Assembly: GCA_947463125.1 (NCBI GenBank)
Contig: CANHQZ010000005.1
Span: 2,575-66,574 of the forward strand
Direction: 5' to 3'
From: Flavobacteriales bacterium
GTDB lineage: Bacteria; Bacteroidota; Bacteroidia; NS11-12g; UBA955
Length of the DNA: 64,000 bases
Shown here in pieces: positions 29,703 through 35,596 of the stretch. How positions within the stretch are numbered: the first letter of the stretch is position 1; each line of letters starts with the position of its first letter. The position numbers and the translations under genes are program-made. A model generated the notes under the pieces. That model searched no databases. It was not told the DNA's origin and was given only the letters and a program-made list of their open reading frames with translations.

Positions 29703-29710
29703 ACAAAGAT
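29703..29710 (-). promoter_or_regulatory. -7 promoter motif TAtcTTTG, 3 nt upstream of the lipoprotein ATG (leaderless-type arrangement)
   Basis: The minus strand reads tataTCTTTGttttATG, an exact TAnnTTTG match. Confidence 0.45.
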
Positions 29711-29723
29711 ATAAAAGAAATTA

Positions 29724-29750
29724 AATAAAAAAAGCGGCTTTTCAGCCGCT
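29724..29750 (-). terminator. Rho-independent terminator after tRNA-Lys
   Basis: 8-bp stem aagcggct/agccgctt with loop tttc, followed by a T-run on the minus strand. Confidence 0.75.
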
Positions 29751-29752
29751 TT

Positions 29753-29825
29753 GTGATCCCGCTGGGACTCGAACCCAGGACCCATACATTAAAAGTGTAT
29801 TGCTCTACCAACTGAGCTACGGAAT
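29753..29825 (-). tRNA. tRNA-Lys (anticodon TTT)
   Basis: Manual cloverleaf on the minus strand: acceptor GATTCCG/CGGGATC, D arm AGCTCAGTTGGTAGAGC, anticodon arm ATACA-CTTTTAA-TGTAT, T arm CTGGG-TTCGAGT-CCCAG. Confidence 0.95.
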
Positions 29826-29882
29826 CATCCCGTTTTTGGGACTGCAAAATTATGGATTGTCTTGGGTTATCCCAAACCTTTT

Positions 29883-30989
29883 TTAAAAATTTTTGCGATA
29901 GGTGAAATGAACCTTCGCAGTATAGGCTCCCAAAGACTCAAGCATACTGAGCATTTTGGGATTAAAATCCCCAATCCAGGCAAGTTCTGCTACTGTTATC
30001 TGCGGATTCTTTTTCAGACATTCATAAAACGTCATAATCATACCGGTTTCTACTCCCAGGTTCTGGAAATCGGGTACCACCCCAAATACGATACCCCGAA
30101 CTTTATTGATATTGCGGCGCATCCACAGAAAACGAAGCATATTCCAAACCGAGAGTTTTCCTGCAAAATGCCGAAATACCTGATTCACCTCCAGAATGCT
30201 TACGTAAAACCCGATTGGCCTGTCATCAGCATAAGCAAAAACGGCAAAATCTCCCGGCAATACGGGCTTTACCTTCTTTAACCTGGCCATCATTTTTTCC
30301 ATCGTGAGGGGCTTAAAATCTTCGTGGTGTGCCCAGGCCTCGTTGTAAATTCGCACAAAATCGGCAGAAAATTTATCCAGTCGGCTGTAATCCAGGCTTA
30401 CAAAGCGGTATTTGGGATTTGACAGCACCCTTCCAGCCAGTCTGCCAAAGCGCTCTACATTGAGAACATCGTAGGTGATATCACAGGTTTTTTGTTCAAA
30501 TATTTTTTCAAATCCGTAATCCTCGAAAAAACCGCGGTAGTATGCAGGCTGATACGACTCACGGTAGCTGGGATAGGAATGCTTTTCTACCAGTAGCCCC
30601 CAGAAACTGTCACGGTCACCAAAATTCACGGGACCATCCATGTAGGAAAGCCCATTTTCCTGAAGCCAGTTTTTGCAAGCATCAAACAAACAGCACGCAG
30701 CATCTTTGTTGTTGATGCACTCAAAGAATCCCATACCCCCCATGCGTTCACCGCTGTTTTTGGTTTGGTAAAATGCAGCAACCCTGCCTATGGCTTTGTT
30801 TCCGTCAAACAACACCCAACGAACGATATCTCCTCCCTCAAAGGCCGGATTTTGTTTTGGGTCAAAAACTTCTTCCACATCTTTGGTGATGGGCTGTATG
30901 TAATCAGGATCGTTTTTGTAAACAAGTTTGGCAACGGCATGAAAATCGGCGATTGAAGCCTGTGCGGGAACTTGTTTTAGGTTGTACAT
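29883..30989 (-). CDS. Conserved hypothetical protein, probably a two-domain GNAT-like acyltransferase
   Basis: 368 aa. I recall the pattern FFECINNKDAA...MDGPVNFGDRDSFWGLLVE...YY..FFEDYGF from Bacteroidota proteins labelled as GNAT. This is a call from memory, not a search result. Confidence 0.4.
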   Translation of the reverse strand: MYNLKQVPAQASIADFHAVAKLVYKNDPDYIQPITKDVEEVFDPKQNPAFEGGDIVRWVLFDGNKAIGRVAAFYQTKNSGERMGGMGFFECINNKDAACCLFDACKNWLQENGLSYMDGPVNFGDRDSFWGLLVEKHSYPSYRESYQPAYYRGFFEDYGFEKIFEQKTCDITYDVLNVERFGRLAGRVLSNPKYRFVSLDYSRLDKFSADFVRIYNEAWAHHEDFKPLTMEKMMARLKKVKPVLPGDFAVFAYADDRPIGFYVSILEVNQVFRHFAGKLSVWNMLRFLWMRRNINKVRGIVFGVVPDFQNLGVETGMIMTFYECLKKNPQITVAELAWIGDFNPKMLSMLESLGAYTAKVHFTYRKNF

Positions 30990-31017
30990 GCTACAAATTT
31001 AGTGAATGACAGGCAGT

Positions 31018-32421
31018 TTATCTTTCTTCAGCTTCCAGCGACATCTCCTCATCGCCCTTTTGGTAAAGCATGTAGGTAAGAATAAACTGAAACATTTCAT
31101 CGCCTGCACGCATACTGGCACCGCCGTATTCCAGGCGCTCTCCTACCCTTTTGGGCGGCCGGTTTGGATTGTTGGGATTGGCAGTGGTATTGTCAAATTC
31201 CGCCTCGGATACAATCCAGGTCCCCGCAGGCAAATGCACAGGTTTTTTGAACGTGTAAAAATACTGCCACCTGAAATCCCATTTGGGAATAGAAATGAGC
31301 TTTACAGTATCTCCGTTGGGTTTCACGGCATATCCTTTGATGCTTTTGCCCAGCAAGTGCAAATGCGGATTTACCGTGAGCAAGGAAATATCCGCATCCA
31401 CCTGAAAACGCGTACTGTGGCGGCTTCGGGTATTGGGTTCAATCTGCAGCGGTGGCACAATCGGGCTTACGCCATTGGTTCCCAGCATCAGTTCACGGGT
31501 TTCACGGGTGGGCGGCTTGTCGGTAAAAAACAGATTGATGTAGCTTCTGTCGGTGGTTTTGCGGTTTCCGGGGCCGTAATGCAAATCGTTGCCCACCACG
31601 GTAAACATTTTGGAAAGCCTGAAAGTACCAATGCCATTGGGATATGACGTGGCCTGAACACCCGGTAAATAATTCACAGCACTGTGCAACCTGAAGGGCT
31701 TACTGCCATTATCGTTCAGTAAATCCAGCTTACTGAAATCGCTATCGTATTCGCCGGAGGTGATTTCCACATTAAATGGCGGTTTTGCGTGGTTCTTTTT
31801 GGCATCGGGCTCATACATCAGGATATGCCCATTGAAGTGGTGCACCAAATTGGGCGCGCCGGCCACAAACTCTATGGCGCGCACCCAGGTATCGCGAGTC
31901 AGCAGTCCCGGAATTTTTACTAAAAAAAAGCGGTCGCGCAGGTTGGGCAACAATTCTACGGCCTGCAGCGGTAAAACCATATCCGGCTTTCCAATGTTGC
32001 TGCGCCACGCCGGGGCTTTCCAGCTCAGGTTTTCTCCGTTTTGCCCGGGGGCACAACCCTGCTCGGCCCAGCGCGCAATAGTGGCAATCTCCGCATTTGT
32101 GAGGTACTTCTCTCCCACAAAATGCGAGTACGCAGGATCAGCAGGCCATGGCGGCATGTAGCGCTTCGCTGTTACTTTGGCAATGGTTTTGGCTTTTTTC
32201 TTTACCTGTTCGTATGTGGTGAGAGGGAACGGCGCCGCGCCACTGTCACGGTGGCAGGGACTGCAATTTTTAAACACGATAGGCGCAATGTGGTCTGCAA
32301 ACGTGGGTTTATCGGGCACGCCCGCTTCCGGCTGGCTGCCGCAATGCAAAAGGAAAATTCCCGCAATCAGCGCTGTAAAAATCCGTGTGGACCGCATGCC
32401 TGTGCAAAGGTAAAACATCAC
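31018..32421 (-). CDS. Lipoprotein with an N-terminal c-type cytochrome domain fused to a copper type II (PHM/DBH-like) monooxygenase-like domain
   Basis: Lipobox FLLHCGS and a heme motif CSPCH (32251-32265) in the context IAPIVFKNCSPCH...KRYMPPWP. Candidate copper ligands are HHFNGH, a later H, NPHLHLLG (HxH) and a distal Met. Confidence 0.55.
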   Translation of the reverse strand: MMFYLCTGMRSTRIFTALIAGIFLLHCGSQPEAGVPDKPTFADHIAPIVFKNCSPCHRDSGAAPFPLTTYEQVKKKAKTIAKVTAKRYMPPWPADPAYSHFVGEKYLTNAEIATIARWAEQGCAPGQNGENLSWKAPAWRSNIGKPDMVLPLQAVELLPNLRDRFFLVKIPGLLTRDTWVRAIEFVAGAPNLVHHFNGHILMYEPDAKKNHAKPPFNVEITSGEYDSDFSKLDLLNDNGSKPFRLHSAVNYLPGVQATSYPNGIGTFRLSKMFTVVGNDLHYGPGNRKTTDRSYINLFFTDKPPTRETRELMLGTNGVSPIVPPLQIEPNTRSRHSTRFQVDADISLLTVNPHLHLLGKSIKGYAVKPNGDTVKLISIPKWDFRWQYFYTFKKPVHLPAGTWIVSEAEFDNTTANPNNPNRPPKRVGERLEYGGASMRAGDEMFQFILTYMLYQKGDEEMSLEAEER

Positions 32422-33035
32422 TCGATATAACAGCCCACCGCTTTGGTTTCAGCAATTCCGGGTTTTTGTCCGTTGCGCAATGCTTTCAGGGCATCTTTCA
32501 AATAATGTTCGGTGGCATACTGCCTTTTTTTGCCTGTATCATACGACCAGTTGTCAATGGCGCCGCTGTACCAAACCTTATTGCTGCTGTCTACCACAAA
32601 AACCTCGGGCGTGGTGGTAGCCTTGAATATATCGGCTATATAACGCACATCCTTGCCGGCGCTGTATTCAAGCGGCATAAAATAACTACTGTCGGTCGCA
32701 GCATCTGCGTCAATCCTCAGGCCCACAAACAAAAAACGGGGATCCGAGGCATATTCCCCGCGGAGGGAATCAAGCATGGGCTTGTAATTATTGCAAAGCG
32801 GACAATCCTTGCTGAGAAAAAAAATTACATTAAATAAGGCCGGTTTTTCTATATCCAGTGCGGCATTGTGCAGGCGGTGAATTACAGACTCCTGTTTTGC
32901 CACATCCGGTTTACCACCATCTTCCATTGCCAATGAGATTAGGCCACGGTATCCACTGACACCTGCAATTATCACCAAAAGAAGCAACAACGACAGCTGC
33001 AGCCATTGTTTGCGGGTGAACTGAAATGTACCCAT
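32418..33035 (-). CDS. Membrane-anchored thioredoxin-fold protein (TlpA/redoxin-like)
   Basis: 205 aa with an N-terminal TM helix and a CPLC active-site motif (FFLSKDCPLCNNY). Overlaps the downstream gene by 4 nt. Confidence 0.6.
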   Translation of the reverse strand: MGTFQFTRKQWLQLSLLLLLVIIAGVSGYRGLISLAMEDGGKPDVAKQESVIHRLHNAALDIEKPALFNVIFFLSKDCPLCNNYKPMLDSLRGEYASDPRFLFVGLRIDADAATDSSYFMPLEYSAGKDVRYIADIFKATTTPEVFVVDSSNKVWYSGAIDNWSYDTGKKRQYATEHYLKDALKALRNGQKPGIAETKAVGCYIE

Positions 33036-33038
33036 GGT

Positions 33039-35177
33039 TTATTTCATTACCTGAAAGGCTTTGACAAACTTTACGCCCAGGTTGCGGTTGGGCGGAATGT
33101 AGTCCTTCCATTTGTCGTTGTTTTTCATTCGTTCTTCCATGCCTGCCCATAGCGTATTCCAAACAATTTCGCCTGTTCCCGTACGCATCATTTCGCACAT
33201 ATCTTTCAGCAGTTCGTTATTTACGGTCCAGGTGCCAATCTGCTTGCTGCTCACAATCTGCGCATCAGAGGCGTTTTCGAGCACCCTGCTAATATTTTGG
33301 TAGCCGCCGCAACTGCCCAGAACAGCTACCTTTGTATTTCCCGTAAGCACTTCAATGGTTGTTTGCAGGTGGTAACTGTGACCACGGTGCACCACAATAT
33401 CCGGATATCGCTTTTCCTTTTCAAACAGCGCCATGAGATTGGCCAGTCCCTTTTCCACACCGGGTTTATTCATATACAGTACGATTTTTCGGCCCTCTAC
33501 ACTCTCAATTTTCAGGTAATCCTCGGTTTCTGATAGTTTATAGTTTTTATCCGATGAATACTTGGATTTAAAGGACTTGAAGGCCGCGTTTCCATCCTCA
33601 TCATCATAAAATATATGCTGCTGCACGTTTTTCCCGTCAGGAAACATCAGCTCAGCCTCCACGCGGGTAAGCTCGGGTACTTTGTATTTCACAGAAATGC
33701 CGGTCACCAGTACCGGATTTTTACCTGCCAGTTTATACAGCAGTCCATAAATCTTCATGCCATAGCGGTTATCCGCCAGGTAACAACGCCGCAATTCCTT
33801 GTGAATACGGGCAATCATCTTCTCGCGAATGAGCGAATCGGACAAAGAACCGAAGATATCGGCCACTTCCACAGCCGGTCCAAGGTTTCCGCCAGTCATA
33901 TCCAGGTGTTTTACAATTTCAATTACAAATTGCTCCTGCTCTTCTGGAGACATGGTATTTAGCACCGGTTGCAATGTATTATACCCGGCACAGGTTTGAA
34001 CAAACGTTCTGAACCGGTTGAAGCCCATTTTATTAAAAAACACATACATGCTGCTGTCGGGACGCCGTTGCATCATGCGTTTAAACAATCCCAGAAAGGT
34101 GCTGGTGAAGATTTCATCACGGCTGTAAACAATGAGGTTGTACAGCTCTTCGGCACTTAGGTTTTCGGCCAGTTTAAAGCGTATTTTCTCGTTTTTCTCG
34201 TCATGCAGCAGGTTTATCTTGCGAATGACCTTGATGCTATGGTGCGCCATTTCTGCATCCACGGAATAGCTGCCCAGAATTTCGGGGTTTCTTCTGAGTG
34301 AACACAATTTGGTGAACCAGGCATCTTCATCGGCGGCCAGTTTTTCACTTTGGGCAACCGTAAGTTCCCCGTGATAAACCATGTGAACATTAGTATAGCT
34401 GCTGCTGCTTCTGCCATAGGCGCGATAAATATCATACAGCATGGAAACCACAGAATCTTTGCTGCTGACAAGTACGTTATTTACCGGATGTAATGTGCCA
34501 ATAAACTGCTTGATGGCGTTGGGATCATTTTTGGCCACGGTTTCCAATACTTTCAGAATCCACGTTTCCCGCTGATAATCTGCGTGTTTGGTCAGCACAT
34601 CATAGGGTCTTTTCGCGGCAGCAAACAGCATCACCTCGGGTGCGCATGCCCTTTTCACGAAGTACGGAATAATTTCCAGTGCCACAAAAAGGTTGTTTTT
34701 CAGCAGTTCGCGGTCTTTTTGCGCCCCCTGATTTTTAGCCAGTTCCAGCACAGCGGCATAATACTGATCATAATAGCCTAAAAACCTCACGGTTCCTGCA
34801 TTTACACCCTGCAAAGAACCTATCAGTTGCCGATAAAAAGGTTCGTATTCTGCTTTGGGAAAACTGCTTTTCTCCAGTGCGGCCTGAATTTGATCCACAC
34901 GGTTAAAATAGACCTGACGTGCCCGGTCAAACTGGGCCCGTGAGGAATATCCGGCACTGGTATCTGCTTTGCCATCAAGCAGGTCGATGCGGCGCTGTTC
35001 AGCATCGCAGAGTTTTATCAGTTCATCTTTTTTCTGGGCAAATAAATTACTGAAACAACCTAGCGTAAAGACGACAAATGTGGTGCGCAGAAATGCCACA
35101 GCACTATGCCTGCCGCTACGGAAACGTTGAGCGAATGCTTGGTGCCTGCCTGTGGAATTTCTATACATGCGTTGCAA
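33039..35177 (-). CDS. Large conserved hypothetical secreted protein (up to 712 aa)
   Basis: Long ORF with coding-like composition. The likely true start is the GTG at 35099, which yields the signal peptide MAFLRTTFVVFTLGCFSNLFAQ. The body is helical, and the C-terminal alpha/beta module contains a His...Cys pair. Confidence 0.6.
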   Translation of the reverse strand: MQRMYRNSTGRHQAFAQRFRSGRHSAVAFLRTTFVVFTLGCFSNLFAQKKDELIKLCDAEQRRIDLLDGKADTSAGYSSRAQFDRARQVYFNRVDQIQAALEKSSFPKAEYEPFYRQLIGSLQGVNAGTVRFLGYYDQYYAAVLELAKNQGAQKDRELLKNNLFVALEIIPYFVKRACAPEVMLFAAAKRPYDVLTKHADYQRETWILKVLETVAKNDPNAIKQFIGTLHPVNNVLVSSKDSVVSMLYDIYRAYGRSSSSYTNVHMVYHGELTVAQSEKLAADEDAWFTKLCSLRRNPEILGSYSVDAEMAHHSIKVIRKINLLHDEKNEKIRFKLAENLSAEELYNLIVYSRDEIFTSTFLGLFKRMMQRRPDSSMYVFFNKMGFNRFRTFVQTCAGYNTLQPVLNTMSPEEQEQFVIEIVKHLDMTGGNLGPAVEVADIFGSLSDSLIREKMIARIHKELRRCYLADNRYGMKIYGLLYKLAGKNPVLVTGISVKYKVPELTRVEAELMFPDGKNVQQHIFYDDEDGNAAFKSFKSKYSSDKNYKLSETEDYLKIESVEGRKIVLYMNKPGVEKGLANLMALFEKEKRYPDIVVHRGHSYHLQTTIEVLTGNTKVAVLGSCGGYQNISRVLENASDAQIVSSKQIGTWTVNNELLKDMCEMMRTGTGEIVWNTLWAGMEERMKNNDKWKDYIPPNRNLGVKFVKAFQVMK

Positions 35178-35596
35178 AGTTCCAAAACTTCTGACTGAAT
35201 ACCATCAATTTCGTTGCCAAAAATAACAGCTACAGGTTGATTGGGCACCGAAAATTCCTGCAAAGGCAAAGACTGTGTGGTTTGTTCCACCCCAATAATA
35301 TAATAACCCTGTTGTTTTAATTCCAAAACAGCGGCCTGTGTATCGGCAAAATACGCCCACAATACAGAACGGTCGGCACCAAGGGCTGTTTTGGTAATGT
35401 CGCGGTGCGGCGGCCGGGCCGTAATACCACACAACACCAGTTTTTCGCACCGAAAAGCATCGGCAGTGCGAAAAAAAGAACCTACGTTGTGCATGCTGCG
35501 AATATTGTCCAGCACCGCTACCATGGGCAATTTATTTGCCTGCCGGAAATCTTCAGTACTCAAACGGTTCAGCTCCTGCAAACGCAATTTCCTCAT
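35060..35596 (-). CDS. SpoU/TrmH family RNA 2'-O-methyltransferase
   Basis: Contains LDNIRSMHNVGSFFRTADAF, IFGNEIDGI and IPQAGTKHSLNVSVAAGIVLW (the three SpoU motifs). Confidence 0.85.
   Translation of the reverse strand: MRKLRLQELNRLSTEDFRQANKLPMVAVLDNIRSMHNVGSFFRTADAFRCEKLVLCGITARPPHRDITKTALGADRSVLWAYFADTQAAVLELKQQGYYIIGVEQTTQSLPLQEFSVPNQPVAVIFGNEIDGIQSEVLELCNACIEIPQAGTKHSLNVSVAAGIVLWHFCAPHLSSLR

Follow-up and report, generated by a model that had tools for sequence, protein, structure and literature searches.

A translationally coupled pair of a thioredoxin-fold protein and a predicted haem c/two-copper lipoprotein within a five-gene cluster of a Flavobacteriales genome

In a 64,000-nucleotide (nt) stretch of DNA from a Flavobacteriales bacterium (GenBank assembly GCA_947463125.1, contig CANHQZ010000005.1, positions 2,575 to 66,574 of the forward strand), hereafter the window, five minus-strand genes at positions 29883-35596 encode a SpoU methylase, a large secreted protein of 686 amino acids (aa), a thioredoxin-fold protein (Trx205), a lipoprotein with predicted haem c and copper sites (CytCu467) and a GNAT-like protein (GNAT368). 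We show here that the functional unit within this cluster is the translationally coupled pair Trx205 and CytCu467. Comparison with fused homologues identifies the pair as the predicted split form of a three-module enzyme, composed of a thioredoxin-fold module, a haem c domain and a core of the type found in peptidylglycine alpha-hydroxylating monooxygenase (PHM) and dopamine beta-hydroxylase (DBH). Taken together, our results are best explained by a unit in which Trx205 and CytCu467 form a haem-fed two-copper hydroxylase and from which the other three genes are excluded, a reading that we consider probable though well short of certain.

The two genes of the pair are as follows (ORF, open reading frame; AF2, AlphaFold2):

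32418..33035, minus strand: Trx205, thioredoxin-fold protein, 205 aa (ORF; Pfam matches of orthologues; alignment).
31018..32421 with a GTG start, or to 32418 with an ATG start, minus strand: CytCu467, haem c and copper lipoprotein, 467 or 466 aa (ORF; Pfam; AF2; Foldseek).

Junctions were read straight from the sequence letters. The stop codon of Trx205 and the start codon of CytCu467 overlap in GAGTGATG, by 4 nt if translation begins at the GTG and by 1 nt if it begins at the ATG; the ATG at 32418 is favoured because homologues start with MFYLC.

Conservation of this arrangement was assessed in 80 loci carrying CytCu467 relatives, all from uncultured Bacteroidota, of which 6 end at a contig edge and 74 are informative. 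A profile search placed a Trx205 homologue directly upstream and on the same strand in 61 loci, and upstream with opposite-strand genes in between in 8 more, for a total linkage of 69 of the 74; the homologue was absent in 5. No third constant partner was found, the flanks elsewhere being occupied by MutS, an extracytoplasmic function (ECF) sigma factor, a histidine kinase, acyltransferases and others. Two further carriers of the pair are a metagenome-assembled genome of the Verrucomicrobiota, at 43% identity, and Spirosoma lituiforme, a cultured species, at 34%. The initial annotation of this DNA had read all five genes as one periplasmic redox module combining haem c, a two-copper fold and a thiol protein; this description is upheld for the pair, by its linkage and by the fusions described next, and falls for the five-gene operon.

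All 9 long homologues examined (580-830 aa) have an N-terminal AhpC-TSA/Redoxin domain, and a Trx205-type domain, recognized with the Trx205 profile, is fused in frame at the N-terminus in 10 of the best 150 clusters. These fused polypeptides hold only thioredoxin, cytochrome c and PHM-like modules. An xGC motif is present in 10 of 10, about 20 residues before the haem domain, and CPx[S/A] in 8 of the 8 that are readable at that position. It is because the fused homologues hold the modules in the same order that we read the window's two genes as a split three-module enzyme. This domain architecture is already visible in databases, as bacterial proteins of the type AhpC-TSA/Redoxin, (cytochrome c) and Cu2_monoox_C, which have the same modules, order, CPx[S/A/C] and xGC motifs and copper and haem motifs as the pair; in the window, by contrast, the thioredoxin module is encoded by a gene of its own, translationally coupled to the next, and has its own membrane anchor. 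No member of the fused type with a tested function was found in the searchable literature.

Two side observations concern the fused and joined forms. The neighbourhoods of three fused homologues revealed no recurrent partner; a glyoxalase-family gene lies beside or near the fused gene in 2 of the 3 (L087/L088, 9248-9670; L090, 1080-1466), which is too few to interpret. Separately, the SpoU and Trx-like frames form one long ORF in loci L011, L012 (6919-8007; 362 aa) and L014 (1-1356; 451 aa), which may be a fusion or a start-codon artefact of crude ORF calls.

The catalytic core of the proposed hydroxylase resides in CytCu467, which is predicted, from its sequence and structural model, to have the PHM/DBH fold with all six copper ligands together with a CxxCH haem motif. 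The sites are as follows:

31837-31842, minus strand: CuH site, H194/H195 (PHM alignment; invariant).
31579-31581, minus strand: CuH site, H281 (PHM alignment; invariant).
31357-31365, minus strand: CuM site, H353-x-H355 (PHM alignment; invariant).
31093-31095, minus strand: CuM site, M443 (PHM alignment; invariant).
32251-32265, minus strand: haem motif C53-S-P-C56-H57, CSPCH (CxxCH pattern; invariant).

The Pfam model Cu2_monoox_C (PF03712), one of the profiles that the initial annotation had proposed for searching, matches CytCu467 with an E-value of 3.4e-5, at 23.8 bits where the cut-off is 23, and also matches 45 of 45 homologues. An AF2 model built from the 45 homologues has a mean predicted local distance difference test (pLDDT) score of 88.7, and the top 31 Foldseek matches to this model in the PDB are all PHM or DBH structures, the best being PHM 3mll (E 3e-13, about 340 columns), with DBH represented by 4zel; matches of this length point to the presence of both catalytic domains. 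Sequence searches of the PDB with CytCu467 and with its profile gave no match, and the relationship was found by fold search and by hhalign, which aligned the family profile with the PDB sequence of rat PHM at E 3e-6 and mapped H281 to H172, H353/H355 to H242/H244 and M443 to M314. With the PHM N-domain alone, hhalign did not align the HH pair, for which the bridge of fused homologues in a multiple alignment was needed: in a MAFFT alignment of fused homologues, the genome's paralogue (described below) and rat PHM, all six ligands align, with H194/H195 at H107/H108.

The six copper ligands, the haem-motif residues C53, C56 and H57, and M89 of the motif MPPWPAD are invariant in the 45 homologues, and M89 is the likely distal haem ligand. 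Haem-domain models match most homologues (Cytochrome_CBB3 in 43 of 45, Haem_bd in 39 of 45) and the window protein itself only at E 0.017. The initial annotation had pointed to PSCyt1, for which no match turned up in the Pfam scan of CytCu467. CxxCH was present in 106 of the 114 representatives of at least 400 aa among the best 150 clusters. The lipobox cysteine, Cys27, is near-invariant in the 45 homologues, suggesting that CytCu467 is a lipid-anchored periplasmic protein.

Among animal enzymes PHM and DBH are textbook cases, in which long-range electron transfer from CuH to CuM and the dependence on ascorbate are still debated. CytCu467 has in common with them (PHM, PDB 1PHM and 3MLL; DBH, 4ZEL) the two-domain beta-sandwich core, the six aligned copper ligands (H107/H108/H172 and H242/H244/M314) and the HxH...LGK and DEM motifs. 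It differs in being bacterial and a predicted lipoprotein with an N-terminal c-type haem domain, whereas the animal enzymes rely on ascorbate and cytochrome b561 and DBH has a DOMON domain. The disulfide cysteines of PHM are absent from CytCu467, the family has its own WDFRWQ and DNTxxNPxNPxxPP motifs, and it has a dedicated thioredoxin-fold partner. The peptidylglycine-binding residues R240, N316 and Y318 of PHM align with N351, Q445 and I447, each invariant in the family, and because these residues are replaced the substrate is probably not peptidyl-glycine.

Within this framework, the haem c domain, in place of ascorbate and cytochrome b561, would feed single electrons into CuH, CuH would hand electrons to CuM, and O2 would be activated at CuM, which would then hydroxylate a C-H bond of an envelope or periplasmic substrate other than peptidyl-glycine. 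The closest analogy, and an analogy only, is cellobiose dehydrogenase with lytic polysaccharide monooxygenase (LPMO), in which a haem domain gives single electrons to an extracytoplasmic copper monooxygenase; there the folds are unrelated, the haem, of b-type, is carried by another protein, and the LPMO has a mononuclear copper site of the histidine-brace kind.

The second member of the pair, Trx205, carries two cysteines of interest:

32793-32804, minus strand: CPLC motif, Cys78-Pro79 (alignment).
32430-32432, minus strand: Cys202 codon of the C-terminal G201-C202, 'VGC' (alignment).

The window protein itself has only sub-threshold Pfam matches (Thioredoxin_8, 1.3e-3; DUF6436, 4e-4), whereas its orthologues match Redoxin/AhpC-TSA, the profiles proposed in the initial annotation, down to 1e-15. 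Redoxin, AhpC-TSA and Thioredoxin_2/8 match 11-17 of the 31 partner proteins. Across these 31 partners, C78-P79, the cis-proline P143, Y156, G158 and G201 are invariant and C202 is near-invariant. The N-termini of the family are a transmembrane (TM) stretch, which in Trx205 comprises residues 11-28, or a lipobox, as judged from sequence. Ser or Ala stands in place of the second CPxC cysteine in 16 of the 52 adjacent partners and in 8 of 8 readable fused forms, so that retention of both CxxC cysteines, as required of the TlpA/ResA/CcmG type, does not extend across the Trx205 family, although the window protein itself has CPLC.

Two known families were rejected for Trx205. A peroxiredoxin assignment does not fit, as neither a Thr/Ser at position -3 nor a Pro at position -7 is conserved alongside the motif [DE]-C-P-x-[C/S/A]. 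A Sco assignment does not fit either, as CxxxC and an invariant His column are absent and no SCO1-SenC match was reported in Pfam scans of the window protein and the partners.

What Trx205 contributes to the unit is the most speculative part of our model. Its most likely partner role is that of a reductive arm, in which DsbD/CcdA would reduce a putative Cys78/Cys202 pair that would pass electrons to haem c and on to CuH and CuM; we offer this tentatively, as a possibility that we favour without counting it as probable. The role is favoured because Cys78 and Cys202 are conserved, because fusion occurs in other lineages and because the source genome encodes DsbD, and its electron order agrees with the N-to-C domain order of the fused forms. 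The genome (2.34 Mb, 98.9% complete) encodes CcsBA-type cytochrome c assembly, a separate Sco protein and a DsbD/CcdA-type thiol transporter. Trx205 is less likely to be an assembly or copper-loading factor or a substrate-holding domain.

One such alternative deserves a fuller account, namely that Trx205 serves in maturation only, either as a Sco-like carrier of Cu(I) on the Cys78/Cys202 thiolates or as a ResA/CcmG-like reductant of CxxCH for haem attachment. Trx205 has much in common with TlpA, ResA, CcmG and Sco, namely membrane or lipid anchoring and a thioredoxin fold in which helix 1 begins with the active-site Cys and a cis-Pro is present, and like them it is probably reduced via the DsbD/CcdA encoded in the source genome. 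The conserved nucleophilic Cys, the family's matches to TlpA/Redoxin-type Pfam models, and the existence of partner-less members, which indicate that catalysis does not depend on a partner, would all suit a maturation factor. A permanent in-frame fusion, seen in at least 10 clusters, would however hardly be expected of an assembly factor that acts transiently; the Sco signature of CxxxC and His is lacking, the motif being CPxC or CPx[S/A] with no invariant His column, and the genome has its separate Sco protein. In addition, the second CxxC Cys is often lost while the C-terminal VGC Cys is kept, unlike in a ResA-type reductase, unless Cys202 acts as the resolving cysteine. We consider this alternative unlikely, though deserving of some weight. 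A further difference from TlpA/ResA/CcmG and Sco is that Trx205 is partnered with a predicted copper monooxygenase instead of cytochrome oxidase or apocytochromes at large.

A further alternative is that the unit is a redox-balancing or detoxifying device, that is, a thiol oxidase or an oxidase/peroxidase operating with thiols, haem c, copper and O2 or H2O2, and not a hydroxylase. The AhpC-TSA/Redoxin matches reaching 1e-15, the lack of a conserved substrate or partner gene in the neighbourhoods inspected and the loss of the PHM substrate-binding residues are consistent with it. The peroxiredoxin PxxxT/SxxC motif is absent, however, with the first motif Cys kept and not the second, and the strict His3 and His2Met monooxygenase ligand sets would be unexpected for simple electron transfer. 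On balance we judge such a device to be very unlikely.

Several points weigh against the haem-fed hydroxylase that we prefer. The Cu2_monoox_C score of the window protein is barely above its cut-off (23.8 vs 23 bits), and the N-domain model PF01082 has no match in CytCu467 in the Pfam scan, while in fused homologues it remains sub-threshold at 22.4-22.8 bits against 30. The use of haem, copper and O2 by CytCu467 is a prediction from its sequence and model, and electron transfer from thiol to haem is a step that we infer. Many family members, including a paralogue with a type IX secretion system (T9SS) tail in the source genome, have no Trx partner, and therefore the partner is not needed for core catalysis and is accessory to the core. 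Finally, the five genes lie on one strand with tight junctions and one strong terminator, and they may be co-transcribed; in this lineage the 686-aa protein may also be functionally tied to the pair.

The paralogue (G000:C47; L081, 580-2130, plus strand) is a protein of 516 aa with a signal peptide, a CTNCH haem domain and a PHM-like core; it has all copper motifs, a C-terminal T9SS sorting-type tail and no Trx-like neighbour, suggesting that it is a secreted or surface-exposed version of the enzyme. At the level of the phylum, the copper-protein family was found in 22 of 301 evenly sampled genomes (7%), and in only 7 of the 301 was there a full-length match similar in size (441-512 aa) to the window protein. 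The PHM-like part alone matched 5,256 clusters at 50% identity with E <= 1e-3. The searchable literature on bacterial PHM-like enzymes, PF03712 and DUF6436 yielded no characterised counterpart, in agreement with the initial annotation, which could name none.

In Spirosoma lituiforme (Cytophagales; L122, 1-6917), the pair lies directly downstream of genes for a SusC-like TonB-dependent receptor and a SusD-like protein, on the same strand, a single case that hints at a link to nutrient uptake. A bolder version of the hydroxylase reading, which we regard as rather improbable, would make the unit the bacterial equivalent of the copper enzymes that amidate and hydroxylate in animals. It would do without ascorbate, draw on the respiratory chain or the thiol system and deliver electrons to CuH via covalent haem, and its task would be an oxidative change, so far undescribed, in an envelope molecule or an imported one, or the oxidative degradation of such a molecule. 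The T9SS-secreted paralogue and the Spirosoma SusC/SusD context would also be compatible with an LPMO-like function in acquiring nutrients.

The remaining three genes of the cluster are listed below, with the two candidate starts of the large protein:

35060..35596, minus strand: SpoU methylase, 178 aa, first gene of the cluster (ORF; Pfam SpoU_methylase).
33039..35099, minus strand: large secreted protein, 686 aa, GTG start (ORF; homologue length).
33039..35177, minus strand: the same protein from an alternative TTG start at 35177, 712 aa (ORF).
29883..30989, minus strand: GNAT368, GNAT-like acyltransferase-like protein, 368 aa (ORF; Pfam matches of orthologues).

An ORF check of the window confirmed the five minus-strand ORFs at the positions given in the initial annotation, and its description of same-strand genes with overlaps or tiny gaps was borne out: the successive junctions are a 40-nt overlap, a 3-nt gap, a 1-4-nt overlap and a 28-nt gap. 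The SpoU stop codon TAG (35060-35062) lies within the large gene, the overlap being 40 nt from the GTG at 35099 and 118 nt from the TTG at 35177; the GTG is the more likely start because the resulting 686 aa is the length of nearly all homologues. The large gene ends with TAA at 33039-33041 and is separated from the Trx205 start at 33035 by 3 nt (TAA acc ATG), and 28 nt separate CytCu467 from GNAT368. The three central products appear from their sequences to be exported or anchored, as had been proposed, with a hydrophobic N-terminal stretch ending AQ|K in the 686-aa protein, the TM stretch in Trx205 and the lipobox Cys27 in CytCu467.

The SpoU protein, which matches Pfam SpoU_methylase at 4.9e-35 over profile positions 2-142 of 142, is by this match clearly a SpoU/TrmH-family RNA 2'-O-methyltransferase; all NCBIfam equivalogs fell below cut-off, leaving its RNA target unassigned from them. 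GNAT368 itself has no Pfam match, and a PDB profile search returned only chance bromodomain matches. As to the GNAT-like call of the initial annotation, 10 of 22 orthologues match Acetyltransf_1 (best 5e-7); the acyl-CoA motif sought was Q/RxxGxG/A, and the window sequence has QNLGVETG. Neither SpoU nor GNAT368 has an export signal in its sequence, and both are therefore probably cytoplasmic.

The 686-aa protein has no Pfam, NCBIfam or PDB sequence or profile match, and no Pfam domain occurs among its listed homologues. In its AF2 model (pLDDT 88.1) a long N-terminal part made entirely of helices is joined to an alpha/beta domain at the C-terminus, in which VHRGHSY, GSCGG and KQxG are invariant. 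A fold search against the PDB gave nothing significant, the best matches being small GTPases and peptidyl-tRNA hydrolase with E 0.08 or worse. The protein may or may not be related to clan CD (caspase/gingipain-like) peptidases, which have a caspase-hemoglobinase fold with a His-Cys dyad after beta-strands: the invariant VHRGHS and GSCGG follow predicted strands, and Foldseek shows no clan-CD structure.

The distribution of these three genes bears on the proposal that all five form one periplasmic oxidative-modification system, with the 686/712-aa protein as substrate or scaffold and SpoU and GNAT368 as accessories. In favour of such a system are the same-strand layout with overlaps or tiny gaps, the single strong terminator after the cluster and the fact that the 686-aa gene keeps its place near the pair as identity among relatives drops to about 50-60% (loci L006 and L020, and pairs of locus tags). 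Across the 80 loci, however, the 686-aa protein adjoins the pair in just 8, and its distant homologues sit in unrelated neighbourhoods, which leaves the role of substrate or chaperone of a self-contained module, suggested for the 712-aa form by the initial annotation, without support; it is a lineage-specific neighbour outside the conserved unit. SpoU and GNAT-like genes flank the pair in 36 of the 80 loci, all among closer relatives. In an even sample of the class, the GNAT-like gene is present in 198 of 301 genomes (66%), compared with the 22 of 301 phylum genomes that carry the copper family, and the copper gene was not adjacent in 27 of the 30 GNAT loci fetched. The absence of export signals from SpoU and GNAT368, the -7 promoter box before GNAT368 (see below) and the limitation of fused forms to the three modules of the enzyme also speak against a five-gene system. 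Synteny in related genomes, the comparison by which the initial annotation had wished to be judged, thus failed for three of the five genes; SpoU, the 686-aa protein and the GNAT-like gene were gained or retained beside the pair in this lineage and are not components of the unit, and we find the five-gene system hardly credible.

In many Bacteroidia without the copper gene (L095-L107, L111, L112, L116 and L118), a thioredoxin-fold protein is encoded divergently next to the GNAT368 orthologue. In the one locus read, L095 (2675-3214, plus strand), this protein is 179 aa long and lacks both a signal peptide and an active-site Cys; the motifs YKGAIDD and PEVF are common to it and Trx205.

Around the downstream end of the cluster we located the following elements, of which the first three had been overlooked in the initial annotation:

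29753..29826, minus strand: tRNA-Lys(UUU), just 3' of GNAT368 and before the next lipoprotein gene (ARAGORN).
29731..29752, minus strand: intrinsic terminator, 9-bp stem with 5 GC pairs, then a T run (terminator scan).
30994..31001, minus strand: TAAATTTG, an exact TAnnTTTG box inside the 28-nt gap, 4 nt 5' of the GNAT368 start codon.
29845..29852, minus strand: TAATTTTG, -7 box of tRNA-Lys (motif match).

The terminator, which follows tRNA-Lys and ends the cluster, is the sole strong intrinsic one. TAnnTTTG is the Bacteroidota -7 promoter box. It is not enriched across the window (50 found vs 59 expected), and copies at 29704, 29845 and 35691 are also just 5' of gene starts (the downstream lipoprotein gene, the tRNA gene and rplS, respectively). 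Given the position of TAAATTTG before its start codon, GNAT368 may have a promoter of its own, which would be internal and near-leaderless. A sigma-70 promoter scan found 13 sites vs 11 expected, the sigma-70 model being uninformative for Bacteroidota.

Contigs of public runs, of unspecified type and low depth, are uninformative on co-transcription. Their depth peaks at tRNA-Lys (about 40-130x vs 2-9x), as expected of a conserved tRNA. Contigs of four public runs all lack the GNAT368 body (29964-30927), with flanks at 2-9x in those runs, and strain divergence above 5% or low depth may be the cause of this hole.

For annotation, these results imply that no function should be given to the three flanking genes from the neighbourhood of the pair. 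The Trx205-CytCu467 family would offer a natural self-contained system for electron delivery to two copper sites, and cultured carriers such as Spirosoma lituiforme make the family testable. If our reading is true, environmental Bacteroidota, Verrucomicrobiota and members of other phyla would possess, in this family, C-H hydroxylases of a new class that act in the periplasm or are secreted.

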